Positions 37,551 to 51,252 of a DNA stretch of 64,000 nucleotides are shown piece after piece. Source of the stretch: Escherichia phage DaisyDussoix. The notes beneath the pieces are model-generated. The model did not search any database and was not told the origin of the DNA. It was given only the letters and a program-made list of their open reading frames with translations. The DNA is taken from the sequence record MZ501058; one strand, written 5' to 3'. A program made the translations under genes and the position numbers. Numbering within the stretch: the stretch's first letter is position 1; each line of letters starts with the position of its first letter.

Positions 37551-38441
37551 TTATACCAAATCTTTAAGTGATTCAGCAACTAAAATTTCAATACGTTTTG
37601 CTAACATATCAATTTCTTCTTTATTTAAGTCACCTGGGTCTTTACCTTCAGGCAGAAGAAAGTTAGCCACTACAGGTGTTAAACGCGTTTTTGTACGAAT
37701 TAGCTTGGCCAATGCTTGTGCAGCCTTATTACCAGAAGCATCATTATCTAGTAAGATAACAACAACTTTTACACCAGCAATAATATAGGGGCTGAACTTA
37801 TCTGCAATGTTATCCGAAGTAAACTGATGTGTACCGAAGCAACAAGAAGCATAGTCTATACCATTATCCTCTAGATTCAGCATATCAAAGATACCTTCAA
37901 CTAGAATAAGAACTGGAGTATTATATCGTACAGGGAAAATCGGTGGTGAAACTTGTTTTGGTTTTACTAAGTATTTAGGAGGGGCAGAACTGTTTATAGA
38001 ACGACCCAAAAATAGGATATTGCGTCCAACAGCATCTGTGATTGGGAATACAATTCTGCCTTCCCAGTTCTCTTGATGTTGGAAAGCAAAATATTTCTTC
38101 AAGGTCTTAGAACTGATACCTCGGAAATCACCTTCAAAAAGAAAGGCAGATTCTGGGATTGCAAGATTCGTAGATCCATTTCTAATCTCAGAAATTTTTT
38201 TACGTACTTGGGATAGTCTTGGAGATTGTCTATATTGAGTCTCATTAAAATAATGATAAATACTAGGTATACCTTTGCCAAAACCGCAACTCAAGCAGTG
38301 CATAATCCCGGTTTCAGGATCAATACGCAAACTTGGGTGTTTATCATCATGATCTGGGTTTAAGCAACAGATTAAAATATCTCCACCAGTATCTTTATAC
38401 TCAATTCCCTTAAGATCAAGTAATTCTGTTATTCTACTCAT
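37551..38441 (-). CDS. DnaG-type DNA primase
   Basis: 296 aa; N-terminal zinc ribbon (CLNPDHDDKHPS...CLSCG), TOPRIM motifs LVEGIFD and LLDNDASG. Confidence 0.8.
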   Translation of the reverse strand: MSRITELLDLKGIEYKDTGGDILICCLNPDHDDKHPSLRIDPETGIMHCLSCGFGKGIPSIYHYFNETQYRQSPRLSQVRKKISEIRNGSTNLAIPESAFLFEGDFRGISSKTLKKYFAFQHQENWEGRIVFPITDAVGRNILFLGRSINSSAPPKYLVKPKQVSPPIFPVRYNTPVLILVEGIFDMLNLEDNGIDYASCCFGTHQFTSDNIADKFSPYIIAGVKVVVILLDNDASGNKAAQALAKLIRTKTRLTPVVANFLLPEGKDPGDLNKEEIDMLAKRIEILVAESLKDLV

Positions 38442-38971
38442 GAATTTATCTCCTCTAATGCAGGATAATTAGACGGGTCGAATATTTCTTGAATAGCATT
38501 TTCCCCATGAAATTGTAATCGTAGCTTATTAATCTTATCTACTGCTGATTCTAAATTCTGGTACTCAAAATATCCACCGAATATTTTCTTTTTATTGGTA
38601 TCTCTTAGTTGAACTTGCCATTTTTGCCGTTGTTTATTCCAACTAACTCCTATATACCCTGATTTACTTTTAGCTGCTTTATTCCTACTATTCTCTTGGT
38701 GAGAAGAATCTTTAAGATTAACCCAACGATTATCCCTTCGTATACGGTTTATATGGTCTACTTCTTCAGGTAAATAACCTTCCATATAGAGAAAAGCTAG
38801 TTGATGCGCATAGTAAGGCTTTCCATCTACCCATATACATATATAATCATCTTTTCTTAAAGAGCCAGCTATACTACCAGCTTTCTGATTACCTCTAGAT
38901 ACTTTTCTAGTAAACTCCCCAGTTTCTGGGGAGTAATCAAATAACTCTTTTAGCCTTTCCTGTGTTATCAT
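38438..38971 (-). CDS. HNH homing endonuclease with AP2-like DNA-binding domain
   Basis: 177 aa; HNH_3-type DHINRIRRDNRWVNL plus SKSGYIGVSWNKQRQKWQVQ; ATGA overlaps with both flanking genes. Confidence 0.8.
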   Translation of the reverse strand: MITQERLKELFDYSPETGEFTRKVSRGNQKAGSIAGSLRKDDYICIWVDGKPYYAHQLAFLYMEGYLPEEVDHINRIRRDNRWVNLKDSSHQENSRNKAAKSKSGYIGVSWNKQRQKWQVQLRDTNKKKIFGGYFEYQNLESAVDKINKLRLQFHGENAIQEIFDPSNYPALEEINS

Positions 38972-40491
38972 ATATCGCTGGCCTGTTCACCTGTTGAATT
39001 TTCAGCTTTGTCTTTCTTAGCACGTTTAGATTGAGCCAGCTTATCCTTCTCAATAGGGATAACGAACTCAGCTTCCATTTGAGATATATCTTCCATTGCG
39101 AGATTGGTAGTGTTATCCATCCGCAGGGTTTCCCAGTTCATTTTAGGCATAAACTTCACGCTATCAGAAGAACGAGTCTTAACGAAGTCAAACATAATAG
39201 CACCTTGACCATTATCCGCTTTTGCAGCATTAAGATTAGCAGCCATGTCTGCGGAATCAAGAATCCCCTTTGACATACGTGTTCTACCATCTTGATCAAT
39301 CTGGTAAGGAGCTACACCAGCCACGTTATGTTTCTGGCAGATAGATTTGAAAGACGAGCTAACAACCATCTGTTCTTTCCAGTCATACATATCAATGGTT
39401 TTAGAGTCTGGAAGTCGGGTTTGGTTAATATAGTCTAGTAAAGCTACTGTAACTTTATCCCCATATCTAGCAACTAATTTATTTAATTCTACGTCAACTG
39501 TTGTAATAGACAGCTCAGGATCATAAACAATAATCATAGGAGTATGTAGCTCATACCCTTCTATTAGCTTACTTTCCATATCGTAGAAATCACTCATCTT
39601 AGCCATTGTGTACTGTTTAACGAAGTTATCGAAAAGCTCTTCACCACCGTTAAACATCCTAGCTCTAGTTCTGGCTAATCTCAACAGAGCTGCACCTTCT
39701 AGAGTATTATTACGCATTGCTAGTGCTGATACACCAGCTAACATAGCTAGATTACGTCTAAATACTTCATGTTCTTTCATCTCAATTGAGAAGTATGGAG
39801 CAATATCTCCATTCAAATATTGCTGAACCTGTATGTTTGAACAGATAATGGATTTACCAGTACCACGCCAACCACCAAGCAGTAACGTTTCTGTGCGAGC
39901 TAAACCAATTTGAGCGTCGAACTCATTACAAATACCAAGAGCGATTAAGTTCAGTTTGGTATCTTCTTCTCTCTGGAAAATACGCATGTTATCTGCGTTG
40001 AATACTTTTCCAGTATTCGTTACTTTCTCTTCTAATTTTAAGTGAAGGGAGGCAACTCGGTTAAGAATTTCTCCCTGATCCAGCATTGTTAAGTCTTGAA
40101 GCACGTCTGTTTCTAGGAGCTTCAGGAATAAATCCTGTGTATATTCAGCCTCTAGGACTTCAAGTGCCTGTTCCATGCTCACTTCTGGAATTTGAGTGTT
40201 AGCTAAGACGACTAGAGCTTGAGAAAGGCGGGCGTTCCTATTAGCTTCAAGCATAAGTGCGTCAATGGACGGCATTGTGTTATATTTTTTATAATAATTC
40301 TGGACGGCTTGGTAAATTGAGGAGAAAGCGTCATTAAAATGATCTTTATGCAGTTTTGAGAATGTTTCCAATGCTATTTGCTTCTGTTCGGAAGCTAGAA
40401 GCATCTTCAACACTACAGCTTGCACGTTAAACAAGGTCATTCTCCTTTGCACGCTTTCGTGCCTTCTAAATGCAAAAAGGGGAAGGAGCAT
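38968..40491 (-). CDS. DnaB-like replicative helicase
   Basis: 507 aa; Walker A-like GGWRGTGKS, C-terminal RecA-like region; SD GGAGG upstream of first ATG. Confidence 0.6.
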   Translation of the reverse strand: MLLPLFAFRRHESVQRRMTLFNVQAVVLKMLLASEQKQIALETFSKLHKDHFNDAFSSIYQAVQNYYKKYNTMPSIDALMLEANRNARLSQALVVLANTQIPEVSMEQALEVLEAEYTQDLFLKLLETDVLQDLTMLDQGEILNRVASLHLKLEEKVTNTGKVFNADNMRIFQREEDTKLNLIALGICNEFDAQIGLARTETLLLGGWRGTGKSIICSNIQVQQYLNGDIAPYFSIEMKEHEVFRRNLAMLAGVSALAMRNNTLEGAALLRLARTRARMFNGGEELFDNFVKQYTMAKMSDFYDMESKLIEGYELHTPMIIVYDPELSITTVDVELNKLVARYGDKVTVALLDYINQTRLPDSKTIDMYDWKEQMVVSSSFKSICQKHNVAGVAPYQIDQDGRTRMSKGILDSADMAANLNAAKADNGQGAIMFDFVKTRSSDSVKFMPKMNWETLRMDNTTNLAMEDISQMEAEFVIPIEKDKLAQSKRAKKDKAENSTGEQASDI

Positions 40492-40522: not shown

Positions 40523-41290
40523 TTATTCAGCAGCCGCAGCTTTTGCATCCAGTTTAGCACGCTTAGCGGCACCATCATAGTCCTTAGCAACCAGACCACG
40601 ACGAGACAGCATAGATTTAACACCGCGCTCAGACTTACCAGTTTTCTCAGCGATCTCAGCAACAGTCATGTTAACCAGATCCAGCCCTTCTAACAGATCT
40701 TCACGAGTTTTAGCACTTGAAGTTTCCTGTACCGGCATAGCGGCGATACGACCTTCACGAAGCAGGCTCAGAGCTTTACCACGGATCTGCTTGATATTAC
40801 GACCGAAGTGAGCAGCGATAGCTTCAATAGTAGCCCCAGCAACAACCTGATTAACAAAATCAGTTTCTTCATCAGGAGTGAAGGAACGAACAGCGGCAGT
40901 TTTTTCAGTTGGTTTAACAGAAGCGGTCATTTCCAGACTCAGGATCTTACCCTGTACCTGTTTAGCACCGAACTGACCACCAGCCACAGCAGCAGCGATT
41001 TCAGCATAGGTATACTGACCAGCATGAGCGTTCAGGAAATCAACCAGTTCAGCTTCCTGCTCAGGAGTCCACGGGGATTTCTGTACTTCGTTAGCTTTCT
41101 GTACTTCAAAACCTTCTTTACGCAGTTTAGAGCCAACAGAGCGAGCAGTAACATCTTTGCCAGTTTCAGCAGCCAGTTCAGTAGCAATAGCAGCTACTTG
41201 TTCTTGAGAGATTACAGCAACACCCAGAGCAGTGGCTTTTGCTTTCAGAGACTCGGTTACACCTTCTACGTTCCAGTTCAGTTTAGACAT
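40523..41290 (-). CDS. hypothetical protein with repeated HTH-like modules (putative DNA-binding)
   Basis: 255 aa; three internal repeats of a ~25-aa basic motif (VGSKLRKEG / GKALSLLREG / GVKSMLSRRG). Confidence 0.35.
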   Translation of the reverse strand: MSKLNWNVEGVTESLKAKATALGVAVISQEQVAAIATELAAETGKDVTARSVGSKLRKEGFEVQKANEVQKSPWTPEQEAELVDFLNAHAGQYTYAEIAAAVAGGQFGAKQVQGKILSLEMTASVKPTEKTAAVRSFTPDEETDFVNQVVAGATIEAIAAHFGRNIKQIRGKALSLLREGRIAAMPVQETSSAKTREDLLEGLDLVNMTVAEIAEKTGKSERGVKSMLSRRGLVAKDYDGAAKRAKLDAKAAAAE

Positions 41291-42053
41291 TATTATTTTT
41301 CTCCAATAGTTCTTTAATCGACAGGATTTCTATCCCATTCGTTTCGGCTTTCTTATAAGATGAGGAAGAACGTTTTGATTCATCCTCACAGATCAGGTAT
41401 TTGACGTCTTTGGTAACGGATTTCTTAACCGTATATCCTAGACCTTCTAAATAGTTTGTTGCATCCGTTCTATTTGCAAAATCTTGCAAAGATCCGGTAA
41501 TACATACCGCGATTTTATTTGGCTGGGCAACTAAATCATCAGTAACGACGGTTTTAGCTTTCGCACCTTTTGAAAATTTCCACGGTAATTCGATAACATC
41601 CTTGCCTTGTGGGGAATTTAGCCAGGCTTTATAATTTTCTCCAGCCTTGCCGTCAGCCTTCACATCATGGAAGCTAGTGCAATTTTGGGATAATTTCTTT
41701 GCTGCAACCTCTCCGATTAGAGGGATTCCTAAAGAACCGAGAACTGAACCAAAGTCAATGTCTCCGCGAACTTTAGTATTTAATTCGCTAATTAACTTAG
41801 CGGCAACCTTGCTACCCACGGCTCTAACCAAATCTTCTTCGGTTAGGTAAAATAGTTCTGAAATCTTCGTCAGCTCCAGCTTCTCAATAGTTTTTGGGCC
41901 AAAGCCCTTTAACTTCATTTTTGTACAGAAGTTCTCAATTAACTTACTTGATTGCGCTGGACAGTTGGACTTATTCCGACAGAATAATTGTCCGTTGACA
42001 AGATCTAGCTTAGAACCACAAGAGGGACATTGTGTTGGAATTTCGATTTTCAT
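41283..42053 (-). CDS. ligB: NAD-dependent DNA ligase, C-terminal part (Zn finger, HhH, BRCT)
   Basis: Start set to ATG 42053 with AAGGAAG SD; CPSCGSKL...CRNKSNCPAQ zinc finger, HhH GFGPKTIEKL, BRCT-like C-terminus. Confidence 0.85.
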   Translation of the reverse strand: MKIEIPTQCPSCGSKLDLVNGQLFCRNKSNCPAQSSKLIENFCTKMKLKGFGPKTIEKLELTKISELFYLTEEDLVRAVGSKVAAKLISELNTKVRGDIDFGSVLGSLGIPLIGEVAAKKLSQNCTSFHDVKADGKAGENYKAWLNSPQGKDVIELPWKFSKGAKAKTVVTDDLVAQPNKIAVCITGSLQDFANRTDATNYLEGLGYTVKKSVTKDVKYLICEDESKRSSSSYKKAETNGIEILSIKELLEKNNNV

Positions 42054-42083
42054 CAAATTTCTTCCTTATCAATTTATATAAAT

Positions 42084-42257: not shown

Positions 42258-43229
42258 TTAATCGTATACTCGCTCTACTATGCACGGGATTACACCACCA
42301 GCACGAATTACTCGAATCTGGCAACCGATCTCTAGATCAAGAGAGTTAATATAATCAACGTTATTAAGAGTCGCCTTAACAATTGTAGCATCATCAATAA
42401 TTACCGGTTCGAAATAACCAACTGGAGTTACTTTACCAGAAGCCCCTACCTGCCATTCAACTTTAGTAAGAGTTGTAATTTCGCCTTCTTCATCCTCTTT
42501 AATAGCGAATGCTCCACGAGGAAATTTATTAGTCCAGCCTTCACGGAAGAATTTGTTGTTGTCATTAATACGAACAACTTTACCGTCCGTCGGAATCCAT
42601 TTAAAGAAGGAACACACATTAACAACTGTTAAGAAGTTCTCATTCTCTAGCCAAAGCATATCTTTTAAATACGTTTCTGTAATACCTACAGATTCAGCAG
42701 AACACTGGACACCATATGCAACGAAGATTAAACCACCTTCCCCGATACGTTGTACGAAATCATCGCTATCTTTGAGGTTAATAGCACCAGAGGCAAAGTT
42801 ACGTTTATTTTCTACTTCTTTTGTAATTAGAACTTCGCCAGTGATTTGAGTAGGTACTTTTTGGGAAATCTTTTTAGGAATGTTCAGCAATCTTACGTTG
42901 CTTGTGACATCATTCCCTAGAATACCATTACCACGAGTTAGTGCTTGAACAAATTCGCCATTAATATATAACAGAGAAATCGCACAACCATCTAACTTAT
43001 CAGTTTCTACCTGACCTAATGGGTTAAACGGAGGTTTATCTCCACGATTATAATAAACTTTCTGTAAAGAATACATACGATACAGATGTGGAATATCACC
43101 CTTAGGCCCGATCTCTTCTTCTAATGGAAATCTTTTAATCAGACGATCATATTCTTCGTCAGAGATTAAAGACATTCCCTGGTAATATGCCTCTTGACAA
43201 CGTTTAATAAAGTCTTTTACATTATTCAT
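42258..43229 (-). CDS. ligA: NAD-dependent DNA ligase, N-terminal part (adenylation + OB domains)
   Basis: 323 aa; KLDG adenylation motif (ETDKLDGCA), TRGNGILGNDVT; ATG start overlaps upstream ORF. Confidence 0.85.
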   Translation of the reverse strand: MNNVKDFIKRCQEAYYQGMSLISDEEYDRLIKRFPLEEEIGPKGDIPHLYRMYSLQKVYYNRGDKPPFNPLGQVETDKLDGCAISLLYINGEFVQALTRGNGILGNDVTSNVRLLNIPKKISQKVPTQITGEVLITKEVENKRNFASGAINLKDSDDFVQRIGEGGLIFVAYGVQCSAESVGITETYLKDMLWLENENFLTVVNVCSFFKWIPTDGKVVRINDNNKFFREGWTNKFPRGAFAIKEDEEGEITTLTKVEWQVGASGKVTPVGYFEPVIIDDATIVKATLNNVDYINSLDLEIGCQIRVIRAGGVIPCIVERVYD

Positions 43230-43501: not shown

Positions 43502-43810
43502 CTAGGCATTCTTGGCTTTGAGTTCTTCAGCTCGTTTCTGTACTTCATGTAAAACCTCAGATTCGCTAAGAATCTGTGTAAACGCATAGAAAAGCTGTGA
43601 TGTTGTTTCTAGGGTGTAAGGAAAAGAGAAGCCAGATTTCGTTGGAAACCATTCATCATTAATATCAAGAAGCCAGTAACGAATACCCATGTATAGATTC
43701 CCACGAAATTCAGATACTGTTAATCTTACTTGTTCTCCCTCCTTCTCCCAAAGTATGATGGACTGGTCATCAACGTGTCCTTCATAGTTTTGATTTACCT
43801 GTTCGCTCAT
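43502..43810 (-). CDS. putative PC4/YdbC-like ssDNA-binding protein
   Basis: 102 aa; core QVRLTVSEFRGNLYMGIRYWL...PTKSGFSF resembles PC4-like fold signature; motif-level only. Confidence 0.45.
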   Translation of the reverse strand: MSEQVNQNYEGHVDDQSIILWEKEGEQVRLTVSEFRGNLYMGIRYWLLDINDEWFPTKSGFSFPYTLETTSQLFYAFTQILSESEVLHEVQKRAEELKAKNA

Positions 43811-44710: not shown

Positions 44711-44971
44711 CTACACATCTAGCTCAACAATCTCCCAATCATCCGCTAGAGCTTCATCTAGAGTTAATTCAACCTCTTCATCACTAGGCAGCAGTGTAGT
44801 GTCTGGAGGCATCCACACGTATTGGCGTACAGTATTGCTGTCTACGTCAAACTTCAATAGTACAGTATACTCTTTATTATTTTCCCAGCTATCCCGTTGG
44901 AGATATTTTACATCTCCATCTTTAAGTAAATCAGTTAGCTTACTCACGGCGTTTTCCTTTTTCTTTATCAA
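44711..44971 (-). CDS. hypothetical protein
   Basis: 86-aa acidic ORF overlapping upstream gene end. Confidence 0.35.
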   Translation of the reverse strand: MIKKKENAVSKLTDLLKDGDVKYLQRDSWENNKEYTVLLKFDVDSNTVRQYVWMPPDTTLLPSDEEVELTLDEALADDWEIVELDV

Positions 44972-45928: not shown

Positions 45929-46291
45929 CTAATTTCTTAATTTCTTAATTTCTACTAGGAAATCTGGATGTTCTCTCCAATTTTTATTATGAAATTTTAT
46001 TGCATTAGCTCTGTAGGTTAATACCTGCAAGTTAGATAGTCTAGGATCTAACTTATCATCATTTATATGGTCTACTACCAATTCTGATTCTAACCCAGGA
46101 AGTAGCCCAAAACAATAAGCTACTAACCTATGCACCCTCACATTTATAGGGAGGCCGTCCTTCATTAAATTAACTTGTAAGTACCCAGCAGTATTTTGAC
46201 CTGGAGTAAGAAACTTGTAGGAGAGAAAAGAGTACACCTCTCCATTTTCATTCACTGCATAGTCAGGAAATTCGGGAATTCTTATAAACAT
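45929..46291 (-). CDS. HNH endonuclease (HNH_3 type)
   Basis: 120 aa; VDHINDDKLDPRLSNLQVLT motif. Confidence 0.6.
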   Translation of the reverse strand: MFIRIPEFPDYAVNENGEVYSFLSYKFLTPGQNTAGYLQVNLMKDGLPINVRVHRLVAYCFGLLPGLESELVVDHINDDKLDPRLSNLQVLTYRANAIKFHNKNWREHPDFLVEIKKLRN

Positions 46292-46632
46292 TATTGTTCC
46301 TTGAGCGAAGAAGAAAGTTCAGCATATACTTTATCTAACTCAAACCCTATGCGAAGGGATACGTTAGTCCTCCGTTGTTTAAGTAACCACTCGGATATGT
46401 TAGGGATGCCAGCTAATCTGTGCGGTACCACCCTACACAGCTTTTCCGAAGTATCATAAACAGGAACTTTACGTTCTTTTACTGGAAACTTCCTTGTTTC
46501 CCATTTTTTATTCTTCACTGTCATATCTCTCCGAGGGATTAAATTCACCAAACAGCTCTTTAACTCCCCTAAGGTATAGCTGATGGGCTTCTTCCGGGGT
46601 ATCTCGTCTACCAAAAATATGCTGCTTCCCAT
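46291..46632 (-). CDS. hypothetical protein (start uncertain)
   Basis: 113-aa ORF; 5' part overlaps HNH-AP2 gene in another frame, so true start is probably an internal Met. Confidence 0.25.
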   Translation of the reverse strand: MGSSIFLVDEIPRKKPISYTLGELKSCLVNLIPRRDMTVKNKKWETRKFPVKERKVPVYDTSEKLCRVVPHRLAGIPNISEWLLKQRRTNVSLRIGFELDKVYAELSSSLKEQ

Positions 46633-47038
46633 CGCAGTAAGCGTAGGCCATATACCTATTACCTCGTTTTACAACTCCAGTGAATCCGGTAGAATTAGTA
46701 GAACACTTCTTATTCTTTCCATTTTCGGAATAGGTAGCCTTACGTAAATTATCCCACAAGTTGTTTAAACTATCACCGTCTTTATGGTCGATAGTTTTAT
46801 CTCCAGGATCTTCGCCTGTCTTTATAAACCAGATTATTCTATGGGCTAAGTAAGCTGTCCGCTCCCCATTTATCGTAAACTCTAGCTGTCTCCCAGTTTT
46901 CATTTTGGAGCCCGCTACCTTTCCCTTCCTTGGGCCAGATAACCAAATTAAGTCCCCAGTACTTTCGTCATACCTAAGCTTTTCTAGGATAAATGCCATA
47001 GGAGGCATTGGTTTATGCGTCTTCATTAGTTGCTCCAA
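46508..47038 (-). CDS. HNH homing endonuclease with AP2-like domain
   Basis: 176 aa; IDHKDGDSLNNLWDNLR (HNH_3) plus TGFTGVVKRGNRYMAYAYCDGKQHIFG (AP2-like). Confidence 0.75.
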   Translation of the reverse strand: MEQLMKTHKPMPPMAFILEKLRYDESTGDLIWLSGPRKGKVAGSKMKTGRQLEFTINGERTAYLAHRIIWFIKTGEDPGDKTIDHKDGDSLNNLWDNLRKATYSENGKNKKCSTNSTGFTGVVKRGNRYMAYAYCDGKQHIFGRRDTPEEAHQLYLRGVKELFGEFNPSERYDSEE

Positions 47039-49799
47039 GTTCGGACAGTACTTCTTCTGCCATAGCCTTCTCTTCCTCTGTCATGAATTTGAAAGGAATT
47101 GGCATACACTCGATTTTACAATAGGTTCTGTACCAGTCTACGATATTTTCAGTGTTCATATCCTTACCAATACCCATCATACCAAGATACATTCTAGCAT
47201 ATTTTGGGTTAGCACTCTGACCTGTTTTAAGGAAGAAGTCTTTCTTCTTACCCTTCAGAGCTTCTATGAATGGTTTAATAGTTACATTTGAACACTTCTT
47301 AATATCTTCCCAGAACATCTCGTGCATCTTATGGAAGAATGCAGCTCGATCATTCGGTTTATCTTTGATATATTGTTCAACATGCTCAACTGTTACATCT
47401 TTAAAAGACTCAAGATGATAATAGCGAACAAGAAGTAGTTTAGCTTCATATGCATCTGCATGACGTGGAGCACAATAATCTGGAGTTGAATGCAGAATAG
47501 CTTTGATTCGCTCTTCCGTATATTCTTTTCCTGCACCTTCGATAGTTCCCCAGCTTTCACTGAAAATATCAATAGTTGCACCCTGATCAAGCAAATAATA
47601 ACGTAAAGTACTAGTATAGTTCCTAGATTCCAGCTCCCTACGACGTGCGTATAATTGCTGTGCTAACTCCAGCCAACCTTCATCAATGTTATATTGCTCA
47701 GAACCTGCGGAGAATCCACTCGTAGATTTATCAATAAAATAATAAATGTTCTGAGCGCCACGGTCGCGCCTGATTGCTTGGAAACGCATGTTTGGCGCTT
47801 GGTTGCTGGTTCTAGTAATAACGAATACGTTATCAAAGTAGTTGAAGTCAACGCCACTTGTTACTGATGGACTACATAATAAGCAATCAATTTGTTGGTC
47901 AATTAGCTCATTAGTTGTGTAATCCAGAATACGTCGAATATCTACATCAGACGTAGAGTTTGAGTGGATTTCCTTAACTAATGCACCAGTATTACGACGC
48001 AGTGCCATACCCTTCTCATTCAGTTCATCCGGGCCACAGTCAGATACTAGGATAGATTTCTCCCCCATCTCTAGCGAAGTCTGAAGTGCAACCCAAATAC
48101 TGGATTCATCCGGGAACTCATAAGCATGAGCTTTTGACAGCATCTTACGGTGGTGATTATAAAATGCAACCGGTTTATCAAACTCAATCAAGGAACCATA
48201 TGCTTCAATTGTTTCTGCACTAATATCACCATCTGATAATATAATGATTTTTGCAGTTGCAAGAATATCCCGAAGAACCTGAATACATTCACGACGCTGT
48301 TTAACAACCGGGGCGAATAATAGGTCATTCATTACAGCATCACATTCATCGATAAAGATTGCATCGATTTGACCAATAAAACTCTTGAACTTATGCAAAG
48401 AGTGAATAGTTGTGGACATACGGTCAATAGCGCCACGCTTAAAATTAAGCATATCTACAGACTTATCATATTGTCCTGCACTAAATTTCTTAGCATTTGA
48501 AGATACCAGTGCTCGAGTATTGGTAATTGCTAAGAAATTACCTTTAATAACTCCTGAATCTAACCAACGCACAACCGCCGTAGTTTTACCTGTACCTAGA
48601 CTTGCTTTTACAAAAGTCATATAACCTTCTGGTGGTACAGTATTTAATTTCAAGAAGTTATCAGTTTCTAGGGAATTAGTTTCTAGCTTTTTAAGTGGAA
48701 TACCTTTTAAAACATCCGGTATATCACGTTTAGAATTATTAACAAACGCTTTCAGAGCCTGTTTACGACCGTTATTAAAGTAATCTTGAATATTACGACT
48801 ATTATCTTTAGTTGCAATGTATTCTGATAAGGCTGGACGGATTTCTTTTTCTAGCCATGCGAAGTCAACACCATCCTCTAAAGCTCTGTGATAAAGTTTA
48901 GGTATGATACGTAGGTACACCCCATCCTCAGCTTCTTCTAGTTCGCTGATAGTTTCCTCTACTTTATCGGAGGCAGCTTTTTTACCTTTAATTTGATCGA
49001 GTAGAGAGTAGAATTCCTCTTTAAACTCTCCTCTAGTTGTTTCATAGTCAACCAGGTTATTAGGTAAATTTACCTTTGAGCCTTTAACAAATACCAGACG
49101 TGAAGCACCCTCCGCTTTAAACGGATCAACTATACCATCAGTAAATAAAGGATCTGCAAAATAGTGGAGCTGTACGGAAGAGTAATAAGCTAAGTCGGCA
49201 ATATCAAAGCCATACTTTTGTCTACTACTTTCGTTGATAGATGTAAATAAGAACTTGATCTGACCCTGCGTAACTTTAACATTAGATTCTAGTATTAAGT
49301 GCATTCGGATACCTGGTTTTAGGCCAGCCGAAGACGATGCATGAGCGATAAACCCTGCATCAAGAGGAAACATATCCTCGCTAATACTATTTAACATCCT
49401 AATAATATGTCGAGCCATGCCAACAAGATCAAACTTGTTACAACCTCCTGTATCTACAATACCATCCACGTCCATTGCAATTATATGACTTGGATTAGAT
49501 ACATTAAAGTTGCCCTTCTTACGTCGCACATTATTTTTGGGTGCAAGACATCGACCTCGTACCGCAACGATATGAGGGTCAGACGTTAAACGTCTCATAA
49601 GAGGGAGCATTTCTACTAGGGTTTGAGGATCAACTTCATCAATTACATCAAACTTGAAGGGCATTGAAGCTGGTTTACCTTCAGGATGCTTTGAGGAAAA
49701 TCTTTTAGCAAAAAGATAGTCTTCTGCTTTAACTTCTCGCCAATTGCCTGTGGCTAAATCGCGATGAAATCCTGCATGACCTTGTAGGATTGAGAACAC
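47013..49799 (-). CDS. large NTPase, putative primase-helicase / replication initiator
   Basis: Start moved to GTG 49799 with AGGAG SD 7 nt upstream; Walker A ASLGTGKTT, Walker B IFIDECD; N-terminal IIAMDVDG resembles AEP primase motif I. Confidence 0.55.
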   Translation of the reverse strand: MFSILQGHAGFHRDLATGNWREVKAEDYLFAKRFSSKHPEGKPASMPFKFDVIDEVDPQTLVEMLPLMRRLTSDPHIVAVRGRCLAPKNNVRRKKGNFNVSNPSHIIAMDVDGIVDTGGCNKFDLVGMARHIIRMLNSISEDMFPLDAGFIAHASSSAGLKPGIRMHLILESNVKVTQGQIKFLFTSINESSRQKYGFDIADLAYYSSVQLHYFADPLFTDGIVDPFKAEGASRLVFVKGSKVNLPNNLVDYETTRGEFKEEFYSLLDQIKGKKAASDKVEETISELEEAEDGVYLRIIPKLYHRALEDGVDFAWLEKEIRPALSEYIATKDNSRNIQDYFNNGRKQALKAFVNNSKRDIPDVLKGIPLKKLETNSLETDNFLKLNTVPPEGYMTFVKASLGTGKTTAVVRWLDSGVIKGNFLAITNTRALVSSNAKKFSAGQYDKSVDMLNFKRGAIDRMSTTIHSLHKFKSFIGQIDAIFIDECDAVMNDLLFAPVVKQRRECIQVLRDILATAKIIILSDGDISAETIEAYGSLIEFDKPVAFYNHHRKMLSKAHAYEFPDESSIWVALQTSLEMGEKSILVSDCGPDELNEKGMALRRNTGALVKEIHSNSTSDVDIRRILDYTTNELIDQQIDCLLCSPSVTSGVDFNYFDNVFVITRTSNQAPNMRFQAIRRDRGAQNIYYFIDKSTSGFSAGSEQYNIDEGWLELAQQLYARRRELESRNYTSTLRYYLLDQGATIDIFSESWGTIEGAGKEYTEERIKAILHSTPDYCAPRHADAYEAKLLLVRYYHLESFKDVTVEHVEQYIKDKPNDRAAFFHKMHEMFWEDIKKCSNVTIKPFIEALKGKKKDFFLKTGQSANPKYARMYLGMMGIGKDMNTENIVDWYRTYCKIECMPIPFKFMTEEEKAMAEEVLSELGATNEDA

Positions 49800-50298
49800 A
49801 ACAATACTCCTGTATTGGAAATGAAATAAGTTTTCTTTAGGACTATTCAGAAAGAATAGAACAACTGTTACTGTCAATTTCTCAACAATTAATCGCAAAT
49901 ACTGAAGGGGGGGTGGCAACTTCCCCTTTCACGCTACACTGCCGCTTCACTATACCGCACAAATCCTTGAGGATGGCCGCTAAGCCAGATTTGCTCACCT
50001 AATGCTTCATGTACTAGCTCATACTAGATGCAGTATACCTTACGTCATCACTTCTCAGAGTTTTTCACTCTTCCCGTCTCACTTCACAACCACCTCACAC
50101 TAGGTTGCTTCGAGGCCTTACCAGGGTTCCTACGGGGTGTAGATCGCTAAGTATTCTATTAACTATTTGTTTAAAAACTAACACGTAACAGTTAAAACAA
50201 CCCTTAATGGGGCAGCCTAACTGTTCCGTATCGCGGATTGTAAACAAGAAAAATTAGCAAAATCAGTTTTTACTAATGTCTCTCAATTCAATATAAAT

Positions 50299-50328
50299 AT
50301 TATAGCAAGATTTTGAGCATCGTGCAAG
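50299..50328 (-). promoter_or_regulatory. sigma70-like promoter driving the long leader of the primase-helicase-like gene
   Basis: TTGCAC -35, ~18-nt spacer, TATAAT -10. Confidence 0.5.
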
Positions 50329-50368
50329 TAAATTTTTAAAGAGAATGCTATCATTGGTCTTGAGTACG

Positions 50369-50395
50369 GATAAAACCGAGCCAAAATGACTCGGT
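50369..50395 (-). terminator. rho-independent terminator (minus strand)
   Basis: ACCGAG / CTCGGT stem followed in transcript sense by UUUUA. Confidence 0.5.
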
Positions 50396-50418
50396 AATCA
50401 GGATTGAGCTAATGAAAA

Positions 50419-50814
50419 TCAATCATCATTTAGGCCTGGGACATAGATTCCAATGCGATTTAATTGACCTTTAGCTTCTTCGAGAATATCTTCGGTGTAC
50501 TCCCAAATATCATCTTCTACTTGCAAAAGATAAGGGGATTCACCAGTTTCGGGGTCACGTGTAATGGCTAAGCCACATGGATGGAATATAGAGAAGTTGA
50601 GGGCAACAATCAAGCCCATGCTGGACAATTCATTCCAGTCAGCTTCCCAACCATCATCTTCATTTTCGTCCACAAAGACACCTACACTAGGGTCTGTTAC
50701 AGAAGTAAACGGAAATGTTACACTAACCTTGTCAACCCCCAACCAACGTGCAAGGAGCCCCTCAGCACGCTCTACCAAACTAGGATCTATCTGACGCCAA
50801 AATACTTGTTCCAT
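50419..50814 (-). CDS. hypothetical protein, paralog 1 of tandem pair
   Basis: 131 aa; shares GV.VD...W.EL..MGL..ALN...F.P...R.TGE.P...PGL with next ORF. Confidence 0.45.
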   Translation of the reverse strand: MEQVFWRQIDPSLVERAEGLLARWLGVDKVSVTFPFTSVTDPSVGVFVDENEDDGWEADWNELSSMGLIVALNFSIFHPCGLAITRDPETGESPYLLQVEDDIWEYTEDILEEAKGQLNRIGIYVPGLNDD

Positions 50815-50823
50815 TCTGCCTCC

Positions 50824-51252
50824 TTAAGCAGTTAAACCTGGGATCATATACCCGAAACGACGAAGTTTCTGAATCCCCTCATTTACTTCCTCGGGCGAAT
50901 ATGACCAGCCCTCACGTTCATTTACCTGGAAAGCAGGAGCTTCACCAGTGCGATAATTTACAATAAGACGGTGATTTGCAGGCATAAACAGCTTATGATT
51001 CAAGGCAAAAACCAGACCCATTTCATCGAGTTCTTTCCAGTCTACAATCTCTTCTACTCCCTCCCCTAAATCCACGCTAACTCCAATACACGGAGCTTCC
51101 TCTAGCGGGCCTTTAAAGGATAAGAAGATATCGTTATTCTCACACCAAATCTTGAGCAGATTGATGGTTTCATTATACATACCATTAGGGAGAGAGCGCC
51201 AGAAGTTGAGAAGCATAGGATTTACCTCTTTCATGAAAATATTATTGAACAT
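50824..51252 (-). CDS. hypothetical protein, paralog 2 of tandem pair
   Basis: 142 aa; collinear similarity to ORF 50419-50814. Confidence 0.45.
   Translation of the reverse strand: MFNNIFMKEVNPMLLNFWRSLPNGMYNETINLLKIWCENNDIFLSFKGPLEEAPCIGVSVDLGEGVEEIVDWKELDEMGLVFALNHKLFMPANHRLIVNYRTGEAPAFQVNEREGWSYSPEEVNEGIQKLRRFGYMIPGLTA

Follow-up and report, generated by a model that had tools for sequence, protein, structure and literature searches.

D2 of bacteriophage T5 is among the few replication proteins of this phage to have been purified, and its counterpart in Escherichia phage DaisyDussoix is the subject of this analysis. The gene lies on the minus strand at 47013-49799 of a 64,000-nucleotide (nt) stretch of sequence record MZ501058, which is called the window in the following. 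T5 D2 was purified by Wong, Sayers and Sanders (NAR 2013; PMC3632103) and is an ATP-dependent bipolar helicase whose unwinding is more robust in the 3'-5' direction. A K405E variant was made as a Walker A control, and according to the abstract of that paper, both unwinding polarities depend on the same core catalytic residues (PMC3632103). The Pfam family PF02399 was placed at residues 392-532 of T5 D2, along with motifs V and VI of superfamily 2 (SF2) type, a predicted helix-turn-helix (HTH) at 308-329 and coiled coils; a primase-like domain is absent from the text of the paper, in which the word 'primase' appears in the reference list only (PMC3632103).

Several other described proteins resemble parts or the whole of D2. 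UL9 of the herpes simplex virus HSV-1 (PDB 9hgi/9hgj) combines a helicase domain (residues 1-535) with a domain for DNA binding (536-851) that carries the RVKNL recognition motif (PMC12543377). The latter domain has no detectable counterpart in D2, and UL9 contains no domain from the superfamily of archaeo-eukaryotic primases (AEP); priming in herpesviruses is carried out by the separate UL52. The same layout as in D2, an N-terminal AEP followed by a UL9-like SF2 helicase, is found in the All3500-family AEPs (pVOG9714). These fusions occur on mobile elements and phages and their helicase is most similar to UL9 (Kazlauskas et al. 2018, PMC5862659); T5-like phages are not named in that study and were not found in its supplements. 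Like D2, the pRN1 ORF904, poxvirus D5/E5 and African swine fever virus (ASFV) C962R proteins contain N-terminal AEP motifs I-III, a helical domain and a helicase, but theirs is a hexameric superfamily 3 (SF3) helicase of the D5, P4 or VapE type whereas that of D2 belongs to SF2. Finally, CyRepA1 of a cyanobacterial plasmid (Slr7037; NF042913) shares with D2 the helicase core, a primase-related N-terminal domain, a helical linker and the DEXDc layout. Its N-terminal domain is however DUF3854, which is related to Toprim and not to AEP.

As judged from its sequence, the product of 47013-49799 is an already known and biochemically characterised protein, the orthologue of T5 D2. It aligns without gaps with T5 AAU05245 (gene D2), which is labelled 'putative DEAD/DEAH box helicase; similar to replication origin binding protein' in the T5 record, and 866 of the 928 residues (93%) are identical. 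The two proteins share their length, GTG start, K405 and genomic position and differ by strain-level substitutions only. The profile phrog_3712 ('replication origin binding') is matched over the full length (E=0, profile positions 1-927), and both full-length similarity and the same genomic position in phiAPCEc03, T5 and Vibrio phage Ceto place the protein in the T5 D2 orthologous group. The window itself belongs to Tequintavirus, the T5-like phages of the Demerecviridae: a 2.9-kb query matched 507 phage records and showed 95-96% nt identity with many genomes of this group.

We propose, with a probability that we would put at about 0.65, that D2 is a four-part replication protein which contains an intact AEP domain and acts as a self-contained primase-helicase, comparable in this respect to pRN1 ORF904, poxvirus D5 and P4 alpha. 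The gene and its predicted parts are:

47013..49799, minus strand: D2 gene, 928 amino acids plus stop codon, orthologous to D2 of phage T5 ('replication origin binding protein')
49050..49799, minus strand: very probable AEP-superfamily (primase/polymerase-like) N-terminal domain, residues ~1-250
48645..49022, minus strand: alpha-helical linker domain, residues ~260-385, with five helices in AlphaFold (AF2) models
47685..48638, minus strand: SF2, UL9-like helicase core, residues ~388-705
47016..47672, minus strand: alpha-helical domain at the C terminus, residues ~710-928, made up of helices throughout in a confident AF2 model

The N-terminal domain

An AF2 model of residues 1-390 that was built on 64 D2 orthologues is confident (predicted local distance difference test, pLDDT, 89). 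When compared with known structures, the compact alpha/beta matches to this model that were identified as enzyme domains were AEP enzymes throughout and included PrimPol, poxvirus E5/D5, pRN1 ORF904 and the LigD polymerase domain (PolDom). Foldseek searches of the PDB also returned almost AEPs alone, with probabilities of up to 0.99; among the matches are the LigD polymerase domain (probability 0.99, E 1.2e-3), S-2L PrimPol, ASFV PrimPol, HP0184, RepB', Prim-PolC, herpes primase and CAPP. The scores of these structure matches are moderate, and the two independent comparison methods agree. The domain is thus modelled with the AEP catalytic fold, and the stretch from residue 1 to 250 very probably belongs to the AEP superfamily. 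A first-pass annotation of the window, which was made from the sequence alone, had described the N terminus as AEP-primase-like. The modelled fold, the invariant motif I and the invariant His and Asp that follow it bear out this description, and of the two routes by which it had suggested that an AEP be sought, structure search recovered the AEP fold whereas the curated hidden Markov model (HMM) profiles gave no match. Residues 1-390 indeed match no Pfam, NCBIfam or PDB-sequence model; a weak PDB-sequence match of the N-terminal domain to a GGDEF domain (E 0.48), the only one found, was treated as noise.

Conservation was followed in two sets, 64 full-length D2 orthologues (33-99% identity) and a 47-sequence alignment of the wider family of the N-terminal domain. 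AEP motifs were taken as defined by Kazlauskas et al. (2018), with motif I (hhhDhD/E) providing metal ligands, motif II (sxH) nucleotide binding, motif III (hD/E) a further metal ligand, and motif IV ('Rh') following motif III (PMC5862659). The corresponding elements in D2 are:

49461..49484, minus strand: AEP motif I, IIAMDVDG, residues 106-113 (D110, D112)
49299..49337, minus strand: AEP motif II region, SSSAGLKPGIRMH, residues 155-167 (H167)
49182..49205, minus strand: AEP motif III, DIADLAYY, residues 199-206 (D202)
49098..49100, minus strand: candidate AEP motif IV, Arg234 (R-L), in 64/64 orthologues and 44/47 of the wider family

D110, D112, S155, S157, H167, D202, Y206 and R234 are among the residues of the domain that are invariant in all 64 orthologues. 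Across the wider family D112 and D202 are kept in 47/47 sequences, D110 is replaced once by Glu (46 D, 1 E), and the position of H167 is occupied by His in 42 and by Arg in 5 sequences; Arg or Lys at the position of the motif II His also occurs in the DR0530-like family (PMC5862659). Motif I is located at the end of the predicted strand 104-114 of the AF2 model and motif II, which we read as R-M-H167, on the next long predicted beta-strand. Together, motifs I-III of D2 have the order, spacing and secondary-structure setting that they have in AEPs. R234-L235 follows D202 by 32 residues and its arginine is possibly equivalent to AEP motif IV. On the alignments, then, the catalytic set of an AEP domain appears intact in D2, consisting of D110-x-D112, H167, D202 and the candidate R234.

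The relatives of the domain point in the same direction. When 1.8 billion representative proteins were searched exhaustively with phmmer, 81 of them came to light; some homologous-protein searches with the N-terminal domain alone gave short fragments only. The weakest 44 relatives (P0106-P0149), which are metagenomic and vary in length, have E values between 1e-7 and 9e-4 and match the NCBIfam model 'phage/plasmid primase, P4 family'. C-terminal to the shared domain they carry the Pfam domains VapE-like (11), DUF5906 (9), PriCT_2 (4), Pox_D5 and D5_N, and a helicase of the D2 type is present in none of the distant relatives. Moreover, 37 of the 47 segments of the domain match phrog_16950, 'DNA primase'. 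By these domain assignments, the family of the N-terminal domain has other members with the classic layout of AEP, PriCT and SF3 helicase. In D2-like proteins the partner of the domain is an SF2 UL9-like helicase, in the distant relatives it is an SF3-type helicase together with PriCT-2, which suggests that the helicase partner was swapped in evolution. In tblastn searches the domain was found in 904 phage records, essentially all from Demerecviridae, and in no plasmid record. These records are most commonly labelled 'replication origin binding' and in a few cases 'DNA primase' or 'DNA primase C'; although some annotations thus say primase, the searchable literature yielded no paper on a primase function of D2.

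We also compared the family profile by hhalign with the domains of three AEP families taken from the supplement of Kazlauskas et al. (2018). RepE/RepS was matched with a score of 33.5 (E 2.6e-4, probability 42%) and motifs I-II in register. The match to All3500 was weaker (score 26.8, E 3.2e-3, probability 10%) and had motifs I, II and III in register. By contrast, none of 19 decoy comparisons, made with reversed profiles and other D2 domains, scored above 19.0 or had an E value below 0.048. In these alignments H167 faces the motif II His of both families and D202 the motif III Asp of All3500. Comparison of the family profile with single sequences was not significant for either S-2L PrimPol (E 0.38) or pRN1 ORF904 (E 0.26); the latter alignment pairs H167 with H145 and D202 with D171, which we take to be catalytic residues of pRN1 ORF904. 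Since All3500 and RepE/RepS match each other far better (96%) than D2 matches either, the N-terminal domain of D2 is probably an outlying AEP family.

The helicase core and the name of the protein

The helicase core of D2 is of the SF2, UL9-like type. It has the two-RecA fold of SF2 together with the following elements:

48579..48605, minus strand: Walker A, ASLGTGKTT, residues 399-407, K405 in 64/64 orthologues
48339..48359, minus strand: Walker B, IFIDECD, residues 481-487, D484 and E485 in 64/64
47760..47768, minus strand: motif VI arginines, R678-D-R680, invariant in 64/64

The two arginines fall within residues 668-682, to which motif VI of T5 D2 was mapped by Wong et al. (PMC3632103). 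Pfam PF02399 (Herpes_ori_bp) is matched with 29.1 bits (cutoff 20), covering only positions 51-197 of the 820 in the profile, and a match to Pfam DEAD is below threshold. HSV-1 UL9 is the sole match found by phmmer among PDB sequences (E 1.9e-5, residues 388-532). The NCBIfam model NF042913 (CyRepA1) matches the helicase part only (5.8e-35, residues 393-708), and with 121.2 bits against a cutoff of 200 D2 falls outside the CyRepA1 family. The first-pass annotation had recognised a large P-loop NTPase with central Walker A and B motifs, which is correct. The three motifs that it had singled out, ASLGTGKTT, IFIDECD and IIAMDVDG, are all present at residues 399-407, 481-487 and 106-113, and that they go beyond chance is evident from the invariance of D110, D112, K405, D484 and E485 in the orthologues, down to 33% identity. 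Its suggestion to look for an SF3/D5N helicase led instead to the SF2, UL9-like assignment.

Neither of the helical domains that flank the core (residues ~260-385 and ~710-928) has a Pfam match, and a jackhmmer search with residues 255-390 gave no link of the linker to PriCT-2. The HTH predicted by Wong et al. at 308-329 falls in this linker. The RVKNL motif by which UL9 recognises DNA is missing from D2, as is any R.KN motif, and the sequence similarity of D2 to UL9 ends at residue 532. Because of these two features, the name 'replication origin binding protein' rests on the likeness of the helicase core to UL9 alone.

A proposed primase-helicase function and its alternatives

How would a primase-helicase operate in a phage that also encodes the following replication proteins?

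37551..38441, minus strand: DnaG-type primase (Pfam Zn_ribbon_DnaG, DNAG_N, Toprim_2/4)
38968..40491, minus strand: DnaB-like replicative helicase (Pfam DnaB_C; 'DNA helicase' in phiAPCEc03)

Both genes had been named as such in the first-pass annotation and their Pfam domains agree with it. We imagine that the D2 helicase would open or load on DNA and that the AEP domain would then lay a primer, most plausibly at replication initiation or restart, while the DnaG-DnaB pair would serve the moving fork. T5-like phages would then probably carry two unrelated primases. The D2, DnaG and DnaB-like genes are retained together across Demerecviridae, which argues against redundancy of the two primases.

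A number of observations weigh against this proposal. The 2013 study of T5 D2 reports helicase and ATPase activities only, priming being outside its assays (PMC3632103), and in the searchable literature no primase or polymerase activity is reported for D2. The phage already has a DnaG primase and does not obviously need a second one. No AEP match was obtained in Pfam, NCBIfam or PDB sequences, be it with the single sequence or with the 64- and 47-sequence profiles, the hhalign probabilities are only 10-42%, and the comparison with PolpTN2 was within decoy noise. Finally, the UL9 DNA-binding motif is missing from D2 and origin binding has never been reported for the protein.

A more far-reaching version of the proposal, which we put forward tentatively, is that T5-like phages split the task of priming. 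D2 would be an autonomous initiator whose AEP domain makes the first primer or primers, possibly of DNA, after which DnaG-DnaB would take over at the fork, and the N-terminal domain would represent an undescribed AEP family that is paired with either SF2 or SF3 helicases. D2 would open the DNA perhaps in the long conserved leader or intergenic stretch upstream of its gene or at the T5 nicks, and its bipolar unwinding in vitro might reflect a need to prime both strands.

Could the domain be derived from an AEP and yet not prime? Viral helicases are known to reuse inactivated enzyme domains as origin-binding domains (PMC4889955), and the N-terminal domain might accordingly be a DNA-binding, origin-recognition or regulatory module, or another kind of nucleotidyl transferase, with DnaG doing all of the priming. 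The complete DnaG-DnaB pair of the phage, the lack of any report of priming by D2, and a divergence too great for Pfam or PDB sequence models would all fit such a role. Inactivated domains, however, usually lose their catalytic residues, whereas D110, D112 and D202, the His of motif II and the downstream Arg of D2 are invariant in the 64 orthologues and nearly so in the wider family. We consider a non-priming domain unlikely for this reason.

The T5 genome has site-specific nicks, and an active AEP domain of the PrimPol type could also function in damage tolerance, repriming, processing of gaps and nicks or recombination-dependent replication rather than in initiation at an origin. A PC4-like protein that binds single-stranded DNA (ssDNA), a ligase as well as the D10 branch-migration helicase are encoded nearby, and bipolar helicases often act in repair (discussion in PMC3632103). 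On the other hand, the distant relatives of the domain occur in classic replicative primase-helicase layouts (PriCT-2, D5, VapE) and the early replication cluster has D2 at its head, so that a role confined to repair seems quite improbable to us.

That the resemblance to AEPs is spurious, with the DxD arisen by chance in an unrelated alpha/beta domain, would be in keeping with the low hhalign probabilities and the lack of an HMM-level match to any AEP family. It is very hard to reconcile, however, with compact structure matches that by two independent methods are all to AEPs, with three motifs whose order, spacing and secondary-structure setting are as expected, with fusion partners of the relatives that are primase-specific, and with decoy controls that score lower. 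An SF3 ATPase as in the classic AEP-D5N-SF3 primase-helicases, which D5_N, Pox_D5, VapE and DUF5906 in distant relatives of the N-terminal domain might have led one to expect, can be practically dismissed, since D2 itself contains none of these Pfam domains, has an SF2 fold and motifs V and VI of SF2 type (PMC3632103), and matches Herpes_ori_bp and DEAD in Pfam and UL9 in the PDB.

Surroundings of the D2 gene and implications

The 928-residue reading frame from GTG 49799 to 47013 on the minus strand is confirmed by the listing of open reading frames (ORFs). With TTG 49919 as its start, the longest ORF is 40 residues longer (968 in total). The first-pass annotation had disfavoured this extension and preferred GTG 49799 for its good Shine-Dalgarno sequence. 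Its choice of start stands, its length of 85 residues for the extension does not; residue 86 of the longest ORF is an internal ATG, Met46 of the 928-residue protein. GTG 49799 corresponds to the annotated D2 start in RefSeq phiAPCEc03 and GenBank T5, the phrog_3712 profile begins at the residue that it encodes, and the published T5 D2 expression construct opens with 'VFSILQG' and thus at this codon (PMC3632103). In phiAPCEc03 and T5 there are in-frame stops upstream of the GTG and the 40-residue extension is not conserved; a 1-nt indel between the window and phiAPCEc03 lies inside it. Met46 is excluded as a start because M1 is nearly invariant and K32 invariant in the 64 orthologues. The signals in front of the gene are:

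49807..49811, minus strand: Shine-Dalgarno AGGAG, 7 nt 5' of GTG 49799, read directly
49843-49859, minus strand: perfect palindrome CTATTC-N5-GAATAG, inside a conserved block of ~45 nt
50299..50327, minus strand: probable D2 promoter, TTGCAC, 17-nt spacer, TATAAT, read directly, giving a leader of ~490 nt
50376-50394, minus strand: terminator-like hairpin followed by a T-run, after the upstream gene
49863-49871, 50185-50193, 50218-50229 and 47388-47396: GTAACAGTT sites, including a near-copy

AGGAG is invariant in the alignment of the window, T5 and phiAPCEc03. The noncoding stretch 5' of D2 is unusually long, with 619 nt (49800-50418, minus strand), and about 800 nt of noncoding DNA precede the D2 homologue of Vibrio phage Ceto. 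The position of the probable promoter agrees with that of a 'putative promoter' 471-538 nt upstream of D2 in T5 AY692264; a consensus promoter scan missed it because the -35 element TTGCAC matches at 3/6 positions. The leader is in part markedly purine-rich, and Rfam gave no match in 46500-51000. The stretch may serve as a leader with a regulatory role or resemble an origin. Just 5' of the Shine-Dalgarno sequence, the window, phiAPCEc03 and T5 share an identical block of ~45 nt (49831-49875, minus strand) whereas the flanking leader diverges strongly in T5, and the palindrome within this block may function as an operator or as a hairpin for translational control. The repeat GTAACAGTT occurs in three copies in the window versus 0.5 expected, a number reached in 1 of 100 shuffles, so that its enrichment is marginal. 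In the leader, one exact copy and the near-copy make up an inverted repeat of 12 bp whose arms are 23 nt apart; of the further exact copies, one falls in the conserved block that precedes the start codon and one inside D2.

In phiAPCEc03 the annotated neighbourhood is the T5 early replication cluster with D2 at its head, and in the window a polymerase of family A and a helicase of SF2 are encoded downstream of the DnaB-like helicase and DnaG genes. Vibrio phage Ceto, which belongs to a different subfamily, has a D2 homologue together with a DnaB-like helicase, DnaG, a PolA polymerase and a D10-like helicase; Vibrio-phage D2 orthologues are ~45% identical.

Several other features of the module, all on the minus strand, were noted in passing. 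Three ORFs for homing endonucleases of the HNH_3 type are scattered in it: 46508-47038, directly after the D2 stop codon, which it may overlap; 45929-46291, which also contains NUMOD4; and 38438-38971, between the genes for the DnaB-like helicase and DnaG. The D2-D3 stretch is apparently longer than in phiAPCEc03, as inferred from coordinate offsets, and counterparts of two ORFs in it, 45929-46291 and 46291-46632, were not identified. The NAD-dependent DNA ligase is split as T5 LigA/LigB (42258-43229 and 41283-42056), with adenylation and OB domains on one ORF and HhH and BRCT on the other. Between the ligase B and DnaB-like helicase genes, an ORF of 255 codons (40523-41290) with sigma-70 region 4 or HTH-like matches takes the same position as a Ceto gene annotated 'D5 protein'. 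The 102-residue product of 43502-43810 contains an ssDNA-binding domain of the PC4 type (E 8e-8), PC4 being the eukaryotic transcription coactivator p15, and that of 44711-44971 (86 residues) has a weak Tad2-like (Thoeris anti-defence 2) match (E 6e-4) that with 20.7 bits stays below the cutoff of 25. Just 5' of the D2 leader are two tandem paralogues, 50419-50814 and 50824-51252, with two DUF7415 repeats each (E 2e-27 and 9e-37).

Although T5 is among the classic model phages and produces DNA prolifically, to our knowledge it is still not understood how it starts DNA replication. Fusions of AEPs with helicases are a well-known kind of protein, and D2 is not categorically new in this respect; what is possibly new is the recognition in T5 D2 of an apparently intact AEP domain from a family outside Pfam. 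If the N-terminal third of D2 is an active AEP primase, the published bipolar helicase would really be a primase-helicase, and the label 'replication origin binding protein', which has spread widely, would derive solely from the likeness of its helicase core to that of UL9. Expression constructs for D2 exist and make the primase idea directly testable. About 900 phage genomes would gain a better annotation, and the Demerecviridae would offer a clean system in which to ask what makes a phage retain a DnaG-type primase alongside one of the AEP type.

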